Part shown: positions 14,888 to 16,690 of the stretch, one piece after another
Layout of the letters: each line of letters begins with the position of its first letter
Position numbering within the stretch: the first letter of the stretch is position 1
Assembly: GCF_001677475.2 (NCBI RefSeq)
Contig: NZ_CP015229.1
DNA: 64,000 nt
Direction: 5' to 3' (one strand)
Source: Escherichia coli
Lineage (GTDB): Bacteria; Pseudomonadota; Gammaproteobacteria; Enterobacterales; Enterobacteriaceae
Made by a program: the position numbers and the translations under genes
The notes under the pieces: model-generated
What the model saw: the letters and a program-made list of their open reading frames with translations, nothing else
Database searches by the model: none
What the model was told of the DNA's origin: nothing

Positions 14888-16111
14888 ATGGCGCTAAACA
14901 AACTGAGCGATAAAAAACTTCGTTCCCTGCTTGGACGCAGGAGTGAGAGACAGGAAACCATCGCTGATGGTAACGGGCTTTCGGTACGGGTCAGTAAATA
15001 CGGATGTGTTAGTTTTGTTTTCTTTTACAGACTGGCGGGAAGGGGAACCGCGCCCATCTGGCTGACACTTGGAAAATATCCTGATCTGAGTCTCAAATCA
15101 GCGAGAGAGATGCGCGATCAGTGTCGAACCTGGCTTGCGGAGGGCAGAGATCCACGGATTCAGATAAAAATTGAACGGGAAGCCACCTTGCAACCTGTTA
15201 CCGTTCGTGAGGCACTTGAATACTGGCTTGATAATTATGCAATGGATAAGCGTAGGGGAGCAGAACATATCAGGCAGTGCTTTGGTAAACATATTTATCC
15301 GGTGATTGGTCATGTACCACTTAGTGATTGCTCTATATCTATGTGGATTAAGTGTTTTGACAAAATAAAAAAAGTAGCACCTGTACAGGCCGGAGCTTTG
15401 TTGCGTATATCAAAACAGGCGCTTAAATTTTGTAGGGTAAGAAAATACGCGATTAGTCATGAAATTGATGATCTTGAGGTCTGTGATGTGGGAAAAAAGT
15501 CTGCGCGAAGAAGCAGGGTTTTAACAGATGATGAAATCAGAGATTTATGGCGAAGTATTAATACTGATTATGACAATCACGAATTATCATATGAAAACCG
15601 AATTATTTTACGTTTCCTGGTAGTTTTTGGTTGCCGACTGTCAGAAGTATTACTGTCGTCCTGGGGAGAGTGGGATTTTGATAAGAAATTATGGCGCGTT
15701 CCCGCTGAACATAGCAAAAATGGCAGGGAAATAATCAGACCGATTCCTGATGGCATGTTTAACTGGTTAGTTACGTTAAAAAAAATAACAGGTAACAAAG
15801 AAAATGTGATTGGGTTTGATATGCGTCAGTGTACGGCAAGCGTAACTATCGGTAAGACATGGAAAAGGATGAAACACTCGGAGAAATGGACGGCGCATGA
15901 TATGCGAAGAGTGTTTGCCACAAAACTAAGTGATCATGGTTTTGAACATAATGTGGTTGAACAGTTGCTTGGGCACACATTAGGCGGTGTTGCCGGGGTT
16001 TATAACAGAAGCCAGTATATGGACAGAAAAAAAGAAGCTATGAACTGGTGGTACGACTATCTGAATAAGCAAATTAGTGGTGACGGTAATGATTCAAATA
16101 GTTACGCGTGA
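14888..16111 (+). CDS. Tyrosine integrase (P4-like)
   Basis: About 407 aa from MALNKLSDKKL; C-terminal catalytic motifs (HDMRR, LLGH, VYNRSQY tyrosine); AT-rich; at island left end. Confidence 0.85.
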   Translation: MALNKLSDKKLRSLLGRRSERQETIADGNGLSVRVSKYGCVSFVFFYRLAGRGTAPIWLTLGKYPDLSLKSAREMRDQCRTWLAEGRDPRIQIKIEREATLQPVTVREALEYWLDNYAMDKRRGAEHIRQCFGKHIYPVIGHVPLSDCSISMWIKCFDKIKKVAPVQAGALLRISKQALKFCRVRKYAISHEIDDLEVCDVGKKSARRSRVLTDDEIRDLWRSINTDYDNHELSYENRIILRFLVVFGCRLSEVLLSSWGEWDFDKKLWRVPAEHSKNGREIIRPIPDGMFNWLVTLKKITGNKENVIGFDMRQCTASVTIGKTWKRMKHSEKWTAHDMRRVFATKLSDHGFEHNVVEQLLGHTLGGVAGVYNRSQYMDRKKEAMNWWYDYLNKQISGDGNDSNSYA

Positions 16112-16310
16112 AGAACTTGAAAATGATAAAACAATCGACAGGATGATTAAGGAAGATGAATGTGCATGGTTAACCGCTCTTGGCAGGAGACACAGATCGT
16201 TACTTGAAAAGGAAGGAAAATTTCCACGAAAAATATGTATTGGTCCACAAACAAAAGTCTGGCGCTTATCTGAGGTGCTGGAATGGGTAAAAGGTGAATG
16301 GAAACCCTGA
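16089..16310 (+). CDS. AlpA-family transcriptional regulator
   Basis: Small HTH protein; C-terminal ...WRLSEVLEWV typical of AlpA/Xis-like regulators; directly after int. Confidence 0.55.
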   Translation: MIQIVTREELENDKTIDRMIKEDECAWLTALGRRHRSLLEKEGKFPRKICIGPQTKVWRLSEVLEWVKGEWKP

Positions 16311-16333
16311 GCTAAATTAAATGAGATATAATC

Positions 16334-16358
16334 AACCCGTCTTTTGGCGGGTTTTTTT
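16334..16358 (+). terminator. Rho-independent terminator
   Basis: AACCCGTC-TTTT-GGCGGGTT + TTTTTTAT. Confidence 0.6.
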
Positions 16359-16373
16359 ATAGGTGATATTTTT

Positions 16374-16652
16374 ATGCAAAAATTTATTTATCCTACACCC
16401 GAAGAACGCATTCAGATTCTGAAAGATCATGGCGAACCGTATGATCGCCGTATACGCGAACATGAGTGTGCCAATCGTACCGGGCTTTCAAGAAGCAGAC
16501 GTTGGGTACTTGAACAGGAGGGAGCATTTCCTGCTCGTGCTCATTTAGGGAAAGTGTCTGTTTCCTGGTTGCTCTCTGATGTGCTCTGGTGGGTTATGCA
16601 TCCGCCAGGAGTAAAGGAAGTAAACAGCCCATACAAAAACGCCAATAAGTAA
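16374..16652 (+). CDS. AlpA-family transcriptional regulator (second copy)
   Basis: 92 aa from MQKFIY; ...VSWLLSDVLWWV C-terminus paralogous to upstream AlpA-like gene. Confidence 0.55.
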   Translation: MQKFIYPTPEERIQILKDHGEPYDRRIREHECANRTGLSRSRRWVLEQEGAFPARAHLGKVSVSWLLSDVLWWVMHPPGVKEVNSPYKNANK

Positions 16653-16661
16653 TTACCGACA

Positions 16662-16690
16662 ACCCCGCACCACGCAATGCGGGGTTTTTT
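16662..16690 (+). terminator. Rho-independent terminator
   Basis: ACCCCGCA-CCACGCAA-TGCGGGGT + TTTTTTG. Confidence 0.6.

Follow-up and report, generated by a model that had tools for sequence, protein, structure and literature searches.

The DNA analysed here is a window of 64,000 nucleotides (nt) from Escherichia coli (assembly GCF_001677475.2, contig NZ_CP015229.1), in which a tyrosine integrase gene (int) is followed by two small genes, alpA1 and alpA2, and then by a Bro-N domain gene (bro). Both small genes encode AlpA-type proteins with matches to the Pfam family PF05930, and each is followed by a hairpin with a run of T, here called T1 and T2 (Table 1). An earlier sequence-only reading of the same stretch had described two tandem AlpA-type genes, each with a terminator behind it, and the open reading frames (ORFs), the family matches and the two hairpins bear this out. 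That reading had spoken of islands; alpA1 and alpA2 are the left end of an insertion of ~15.4 kb in the terL gene of a lambdoid prophage, co-oriented with terL. The inserted satellite is a helper-embedded phage-inducible chromosomal island (HE-PICI) at a terminase site, inside the late operon of its helper prophage, and has the gene set of a capsid-forming PICI (cf-PICI). Both classes were already known.

Table 1. Features of the satellite and of its helper prophage in the window, and of fused relatives. L numbers denote loci of relatives.
Feature	Position	Strand	Description
alpA1, 73 amino acids (aa)	16089-16310	+	PF05930 Phage_AlpA, 37.9 bits (cut-off 21)
T1	16334-16358	+	hairpin AACCCGTC/GGCGGGTT at 16334-16353, 8 pairs, then seven T (16352-16358)
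alpA2, 92 aa	16374-16652	+	PF05930 Phage_AlpA, 39.4 bits (cut-off 21); Shine-Dalgarno GGTGA at 16362-16366
T2	16661-16690	+	hairpin AACCCCGCA/TGCGGGGTT at 16661-16686, 9 pairs, then six T (16685-16690)
Satellite tyrosine integrase gene int, 407 aa	14888-16111	+	Arm-DNA-bind_3 and Phage_integrase domains; RefSeq annotation in L001
Int-AlpA1 fusion proteins	L008 2490-3923; L010 184-1608; L033 2501-3922; L035 2501-3922		C-terminal Phage_AlpA domain
Helper terL 5' fragment, cut by the satellite	13689-14716	+	TerL_ATPase and first 64 positions of the TerL_nuclease profile
attL core TCACGAA	14710-14716		read from the sequence
HE-PICI doubled motif tgTGTATTGCActgTGTATTGCa	14846-14869	+	attL side; second copy at 30022-30045
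attR core and helper terL 3' fragment	30119-30855 (core 30119-30125)	+	TerL_nuclease profile resumes at position 64
Helper Q antiterminator gene	8258-9079	+	PF03589 Antiterm, E 8e-52; upstream of the satellite, co-oriented
bro, start of the "Bro zone"	16710-17303	+	PF02498 Bro-N, E 1.7e-16
ylcI/ynfO-like gene, 74 aa	17916-18140	-	RefSeq name in L001 and L032; no Pfam match
C4-type antisense (immunity) RNA	18652-18739	+	Rfam RF01695, 72.3 bits (gathering score 45)
Satellite packaging module	23609-29602	+	capsid, protease, portal, connector, HNH, terS (27460-27957), terL (27941-29602)

AlpA1 and AlpA2 share 44% identity over 57 aa (E 2e-14) and are each other's closest relatives, the AlpA proteins of sibling satellites being only 17-21% identical to them; they had rightly been taken for paralogs. 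A typical E. coli PICI has one AlpA, which serves as a helper-induced, autoactivating master activator (PMC6092414, PMC11773190), and the assumption that AlpA normally occurs once per E. coli PICI is explicit in PMC11773190. AlphaFold2 models of both proteins display a MerR-like/excisionase-type winged helix-turn-helix fold, with predicted local distance difference test scores of 86 for AlpA1 and 81 for AlpA2. In the PDB, the top match of both models is the GIsul2 excisionase 8c3t (target-normalised template modelling scores of 0.79 and 0.84), followed by the RdfS excisionase; with so small a domain, Foldseek gives weak E-values (0.02-0.1). A literature search for PDB entry 8C3T found no paper, and the name used here is the entry title given by the fold search. 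Structure was considered as a means of discriminating a regulator from an excisionase and was dropped, both models matching the same PDB entries. NCBIfam lacks models for the two AlpA proteins and for Bro. In the databases, some 20 proteins contain 2-4 Phage_AlpA domains in one chain; these multidomain polypeptides are 139-301 aa long, with the domains in tandem (P0017, P0035, P0037, P0046, P0072, P0099, P0127).

Relatives of the module were gathered by protein search, context look-up and a one-genome-per-species scan. Both alpA genes are under purifying selection. They are retained in Xenorhabdus, Arsenophonus, Salmonella and Morganella at 51-71% amino-acid identity, and against relatives from other genera the ratio of nonsynonymous to synonymous substitution rates is well below 1 (0.09-0.37 where computable). 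RefSeq has two regulators under every match listed among the 35 E. coli genomes with the module, and both genes are intact in each of these matches. It is hardly credible, then, that one copy is a functionless, decaying duplicate, although a premature stop in alpA2 of Xenorhabdus L016 and the degraded appearance of L010-L012 would be in keeping with decay. In the window copies of alpA1 and alpA2, neither a frameshift, which the sequence-only reading had named as grounds for giving up its proposal, nor a stop was seen.

The two genes differ in their surroundings. The start of alpA1 overlaps the end of int by 23 nt, such that the GGTGA Shine-Dalgarno sequence of alpA1 lies within int and the TGA stop of int is embedded in conserved Arg-Glu codons (CGTGAA) of alpA1. 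An identical 23-nt overlap is found in Xenorhabdus. In a sister clade, whose Int is ~45% identical, int and alpA1 form a single reading frame; the resulting proteins of 472-477 aa carry AlpA1 at the C-terminal end of Int and match PF05930 with 27-30 bits at residues ~416-467. These fusions fall into nine 90% clusters from Salmonella, E. coli, Arsenophonus and Morganella; since they are kept down to 55% identity, they constitute classical evidence that Int and AlpA1 cooperate. We also considered a programmed frameshift from int into alpA1 in the lineage of the window and rejected it: a +1 shift would be required, and the 23-nt overlap has no slippery motif. As a small winged-helix protein whose gene adjoins that of an integrase and is linked to it by overlap or fusion, AlpA1 has some of the features of a recombination directionality factor. 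Judging from these arrangements, it is most likely an accessory DNA-binding or excisionase-like factor of the integrase that would act at the arms of the attachment (att) sites.

Downstream lies alpA2, which is orthologous to the single AlpA gene of related chromosomal PICIs. It is highly conserved, with 42 invariant columns among 8 homologues. Five chromosomal PICIs, from Klebsiella, Pectobacterium, Pluralibacter, Pantoea and Rosenbergiella, have alpA2 but no alpA1, as do two elements of Xenorhabdus; in Intestinirhabdus the ORF before alpA2 is of AlpA/HTH_17 type but unrelated to alpA1. The lone AlpA is a required activator in EcCICFT073 and EcCIEDL933 (PMC6092414; bioRxiv 10.1101/2022.09.08.507074), and by analogy AlpA2 is most likely the transcriptional activator of the satellite cycle. 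The role of late-operon activator, which the sequence-only reading had considered for AlpA-type proteins, is plausible for alpA2 and not for alpA1, which is coupled to int and fused to Int in the sister clade.

The two proteins might instead act jointly, as a hetero-oligomer or on adjacent half-sites, at the att arms and/or at promoters, and be encoded in one unit with a leaky terminator in between. Such a partnership would suit two proteins that are far closer to each other (44% identity) than to the AlpA of sibling satellites (17-21%) and whose models share the winged-helix excisionase fold, as well as the single chains with 2-4 PF05930 domains and the doubled motif of two half-sites on the att arms (see below). 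We nevertheless consider it unlikely: alpA2 occurs without alpA1 in several genera, the sister clade has alpA1 fused to Int and not to alpA2, and a conserved terminator would be odd between partners that are required in a fixed proportion.

T1 and T2 each consist of a GC-rich hairpin directly followed by a U-run on the transcribed strand, as is typical of intrinsic terminators, and both are predicted to terminate transcription. They are the best terminator-like sites on the + strand in the 13-20 kb part of the window. The T1 hairpin ends 20 nt 5' of the alpA2 ATG, leaving room for the T-run and the GGTGA Shine-Dalgarno sequence alone; its fold of -13.8 kcal/mol (z = -4.8) was equalled by 0 of 200 shuffled sequences. 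T2 begins 8 nt beyond the stop codon of alpA2, the end of its T-run is 19 nt from the ATG of bro, and its fold of -17.5 kcal/mol (z = -4.0) was likewise not reached in 200 shuffles. With T1 between alpA1 and alpA2, and T2 before bro, the terminators would divide the region into separate units, in agreement with what had been suggested; a relay, the other option raised there, is conceivable.

At 15 of the 16 junctions examined in the Int clade, a hairpin and T-run of the T1 type lie 18-26 nt 5' of the alpA2 ATG. The junctions are from E. coli, Salmonella, Xenorhabdus (T1 at 11 of 12 loci), Arsenophonus and Morganella; at the sole junction where T1 was not called, L020, a similar hairpin was missed by the scan, and int is truncated there. 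T1 occurs with a separate alpA1, with a fused one and also where there is no alpA1 (L014, L028). Its stems vary by genus, and RNAalifold finds the same six-pair stem in 10 of 10 sequences. Among the T1-bearing loci with readable upstream flanks, nine of 11 lie in prophage late genes, namely terL, gpA, the tail tube and chaperone region, tail L and head genes. Seven other AlpA2 loci that we scanned have no upstream hairpin with T-run, and ~100 nt of non-coding DNA are found there instead; at four of the seven, the genes upstream of int are chromosomal or restriction-enzyme genes (YicC, TetR, DUF4432, HsdR).

In E. coli L010, the T1 hairpin follows the stop of the Int-AlpA1 fusion, and an IS200-type insertion lies between the hairpin and alpA2. 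This element, with a Y1 transposase, sits precisely between hairpin and gene in three relatives (L010 1660-2384; L011 and L012 784-1365), all of which look degraded; the associated alpA2 protein occurs on 19 contigs.

T2 has a different history. It is part of a cassette of ~60 nt that comprises the terminator and the leader and start of bro (16662-16720), and this cassette is present at ~90% identity in a further 88 E. coli genomes, O157:H7 among them. In those 88 genomes it follows a single AlpA of 67 aa that is 17-21% identical to the alpA1 or alpA2 protein. Because the cassette also follows an unrelated, single AlpA, T2 is best described as a mosaic module boundary of the satellite family and not as a property of alpA2. 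After alpA2, it is found in the E. coli clade and in Arsenophonus only.

The meaning of these terminators depends on where the satellite sits. Homology to TerL breaks off at position 64 of the TerL_nuclease profile and picks up at exactly the same position at 30130, on the other side of the satellite; the interrupted 5' ORF (terL') continues into satellite DNA to 14882, and in relatives L001 and L032 RefSeq annotates this fragment as a partial terminase. Joining the flanks at the TCACGAA core yields an uninterrupted stretch of terL that is present in 905 of 5426 complete E. coli genomes. The occupied junction was found in 35 E. coli genomes, the same number as carry the tandem alpA module, and every one of the 35 module copies is at this junction. 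Strains with the element include E. coli 042 (NC_017626.1, at about 2.249 Mb) and UMNF18. Both att arms bear tgTGTATTGCnctgTGTATTGC, which matches the motif tgTGTATTGCantgTGTATTGCa, reported as unique to HE-PICIs (Tommasini, Mageeney & Williams 2023, PMC10111431). The downstream copy begins 133 nt from the centre of the core, compared with 132 +/- 2 in PMC10111431, and the upstream copy is 77-100 nt from the core, depending on the reference point, compared with 81 +/- 2.

Further features are likewise those of HE-PICIs. The satellite lies within a late gene of a prophage and is co-oriented with it, and it interrupts terL without a replacement copy in attP. All genes from Q through terL and int are on the + strand. 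The integrase may also belong to the HE-PICI clade: its domain architecture fits, and relatives at 45-71% identity are located in prophage late genes. As in cf-PICIs, capsid, protease, portal, connector, HNH, TerS and TerL are all encoded by the satellite, and tail and lysis genes are absent; the element may thus form capsids of its own. A search of a phage collection with the int-alpA-bro stretch gave no match.

This embedded, co-oriented position alters what the terminators would mean, because they would not stop a Q-modified polymerase that arrives from upstream. The reading that we put forward, and for which we regard the balance as about even, is that the AlpA paralogs divide the labour between them, that the terminators insulate the units and that Q-modified polymerase reads through. 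In the lysogen, the helper late operon would be silent; transcripts entering or starting in int would be halted at T1 and those starting past T1 at T2, and these stops would keep alpA2, bro and the remainder of the satellite quiet. Upon helper induction, Q-loaded polymerase from the late promoter, being resistant to intrinsic terminators, would cross terS and terL' into the satellite. Int and AlpA1 would be expressed, and the satellite would be excised, restoring the helper terL. The Q-modified polymerase would then pass T1 into alpA2 and T2 into bro, whereby the satellite would be turned on in cis in the late phase of the helper. AlpA2, possibly with Bro as an anti-repressor, would activate satellite promoters on the excised circle, a candidate being the promoter at 18163-18192. 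That helper late transcription runs into HE-PICIs has been proposed before (PMC10111431).

A more specific version may be offered tentatively, as a possibility that we think somewhat improbable: T1 would have replaced the helper-activated alpA promoter, so that alpA2 could be reached only by Q-modified polymerase. T1 would then be an "antitermination sensor" in cis, followed by a relay from excision by Int and AlpA1 to activation by AlpA2 (and Bro), and in the Int-AlpA1 fusions the tyrosine recombinase would contain an excisionase-type domain of its own.

A scan for promoters on the + strand from 15736 to 18162 found no sigma-70-like promoter. A conserved promoter was also sought at T1, where the region is AT-rich: TATAAT is present in E. 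coli and an AATAAT-like sequence in Xenorhabdus, but neither in Salmonella nor in Xenorhabdus L030. These results bear on an explanation that does without gating, in which the hairpins are operon-end terminators, mRNA-stabilising 3' hairpins or cassette borders and the promoters of alpA2 and bro are activated by the helper in trans, as in EcCICFT073. The perfect TATAAT at 16327-16332 could serve such a promoter, and a transcript starting ~7 nt downstream of it would miss the 5' arm of the hairpin; however, there is no -35 element, the -10-like element beside T1 is not conserved in Salmonella and Xenorhabdus L030, and a spacing of just 18-26 nt between T1 and the alpA2 ATG is what the relatives have. 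The alpA promoters of characterised PICIs are indeed helper-activated and autoactivated (PMC6092414, PMC11773190). T2 and the bro leader, a mosaic boundary common to satellites with unrelated AlpA genes, would be ordinary in this sense, as would the lack of T2 in most relatives and the IS200-type element between T1 and alpA2 in L010-L012 (19 contigs). Against this, the seven other AlpA2 loci have ~100 nt of non-coding DNA and no hairpin with T-run upstream of the gene. On the whole we judge the explanation by ordinary hairpins to be improbable.

Several points weigh against our own reading of divided labour with read-through by Q-modified polymerase, both parts of which are deduced from the arrangement of genes and hairpins. 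Activator-dependent promoters that lack a -35 element would evade the promoter scan, and the TATAAT sequence abuts T1. Terminator-like sites in the region are not above chance (9 found, 8.3 expected); with the raw count at chance, the support comes from position at gene ends, orientation and conservation in relatives. T1 shows almost no covariation in the RNAalifold alignment of 10 sequences, and because a compensatory change is seen in one of the six pairs alone, it is its conserved position that supports it and not covariation. T1 also tracks a single Int clade, and phylogenetic inertia is therefore possible. T2 was not found after alpA2 in Xenorhabdus, Salmonella and Morganella, so that a terminator of its own for each gene is not a conserved design. 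AlpA1 always comes with Int, either co-produced or in a single chain, while a classical directionality factor would be expected to be missing when integration takes place; given this obligate co-expression, AlpA1 may be a constitutive accessory domain and not a true excisionase. The structure models do not tell the two proteins apart, having the same excisionases (GIsul2, RdfS) as their top matches, and the proteins with 2-4 AlpA domains suit joint action equally well as divided action.

The name AlpA is shared with an antiterminator of Pseudomonas aeruginosa (PMC7969949, PMC9371919), which resembles the system described here in its name and its downstream intrinsic terminators only. That protein is larger and Q-like, with eight helices, DNA-contact residues up to 142 and an N-terminal ring reaching into the RNA exit channel (PMC7969949, PMC9371919). 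At 73 and 92 aa, AlpA1 and AlpA2 are too small for an N-terminal ring and a C-terminal helix-turn-helix (HTH), and they have a winged-helix fold of excisionase type. Sequence searches of the PDB with both proteins did not match the entries of P. aeruginosa AlpA with RNA polymerase at E <= 10. The idea that an AlpA acts as an antiterminator at T1 or T2 was rejected on these grounds, the P. aeruginosa protein being unrelated.

The closest likeness is to the HE-PICIs of PMC10111431 (terL site A:Terminase_1:245/246), with which the satellite shares insertion into a prophage late gene in the same orientation, the lack of a replacement sequence, a doubled TGTATTGC motif on both att arms near the reported spacing, the order of four zones (integration, Bro, replication, late) and a C4-type RNA in the Bro zone. 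In contrast to the satellite described here, those elements are reported with a single conserved AlpA in the integration zone, with neither tandem paralogs nor Int-AlpA fusions nor terminators within that zone; the strings "fused" and "antitermin" are absent from the text of PMC10111431, where "terminator" appears twice, in connection with P4 and fis. EcCIEDL933 (bioRxiv 10.1101/2022.09.08.507074) also measures ~15.4 kb, has int and alpA leftmost and carries its own capsid, protease, portal, connector, HNH, TerS and TerL genes but no tail genes. It has one alpA, which is needed for induction and transfer, whereas the element in the window has two. EcCIMP1 (PMC11773190) likewise has two AlpA-family genes with unlike roles, a master regulator adjacent to int and an excisionase-like copy. 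The latter is encoded on the other strand, at the distal end of the island, and aids helper excision, whereas here the paralogs are adjacent and co-oriented, with a terminator between them.

P4 Vis and the AlpA of CP4-57 are, like the proteins described here, small winged-helix PF05930 proteins encoded beside an integrase of P4 type. CP4-57 AlpA promotes intA-dependent excision. In these systems one protein is credited with both roles, whereas here the roles may be split, one of the paralogs being fusable to Int. In P4, translation of vis is coupled to that of eta, the Bro-network gene that follows it; in the satellite, alpA2 and bro are set apart by a terminator and ~57 nt. In lambda, the tI terminator and sib beyond int-xis are passed only by N-antiterminated polymerase. 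By analogy, the terminator just past the recombination genes of the satellite may have an effect that is set by the antitermination state of the polymerase, although the order of genes differs and the antiterminator would be helper Q and not N. P4 Vis, an AlpA homologue, both regulates P4 promoters and is needed for excision (PMC10111431).

In the literature that can be searched, there is no description of tandem AlpA paralogs as in this Int clade, of the Int-AlpA fusion or of the conserved terminator before alpA2; the same seems to hold for an integrase that carries an excisionase-type domain of its own. Neither intrinsic terminators nor AlpA genes are unusual in themselves, and should the terminators prove to be plain operon ends, what is left is a known element with a duplicated gene. 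As to how Gram-negative PICIs sense their helper, the helper factor that switches on alpA was "under study" in 2018 (PMC6092414), and our literature searches returned neither a later answer nor a paper that ties PICI alpA to antitermination. T1 would give a sequence handle to the drive in cis by helper late transcription, which had no sequence feature linked to it before, and the other seven AlpA2 loci, of which four or more are chromosomal, provide a contrast with the T1 clade. The overlap and fusion of alpA1 with int offer a natural experiment that separates excision from transcription, two roles that the annotation of the AlpA family presently lumps together.

Beyond the module, the satellite in strain OkiPb01701 (L001) is very similar to that in the window: its int-alpA-bro module is 99% identical, and it has the same packaging genes in the same order. 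In the packaging module, Pfam matches were obtained for capsid, Terminase_4 and TerL. The satellite also carries a replication gene, which is unlike between these near-identical satellites: in the window it encodes an AAA_25 protein of 469 aa (19927-21336), in OkiPb01701 a DUF927 primase-type protein (L001 20501-22624). The replication zone is mosaic, as the replication gene differs between satellites that are otherwise nearly identical. Just past the satellite terL, at 29680-29830, three direct copies of TTGCGGGTTA are followed by three inverted copies of TAACCCGC around an AT-rich stretch. These iteron-like repeats may be an origin of replication or a packaging site.

In the Bro zone, the promoter scan revealed a sigma-70-like promoter (18163-18192, + strand) that is divergent from the adjoining ylcI/ynfO-like gene and is bordered by GTGTAAGACA at 18124-18133 and 18169-18178 and by the inverse TGTCTTACAC at 18192-18201. 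Gene, repeats and promoter are probably the repressor, operator and early-promoter region of the satellite. An a1/b1-like target of the C4-type RNA is found at 18535-18584 (RF03163, 42.1 bits, slightly under the gathering score). The RNA itself sits between two paralogous Icd-like ORFs (18284-18964) that both end in ...ARIRQG (repeat D1, 18461-18499 and 18918-18956). This arrangement of C4 RNA and Icd-like ORFs is similar to immunity modules of the P1/P4 style.

On the helper side, the tRNA genes within 10380-10628, HNH, terS and terL' have the same orientation as the satellite genes. Between Q and the tRNA genes (10380-10452 and 10555-10628), the prophage carries a gene with an AraC-type HTH (PF12833, PF00165; 9640-10353), possibly a moron-type regulator of the late region.

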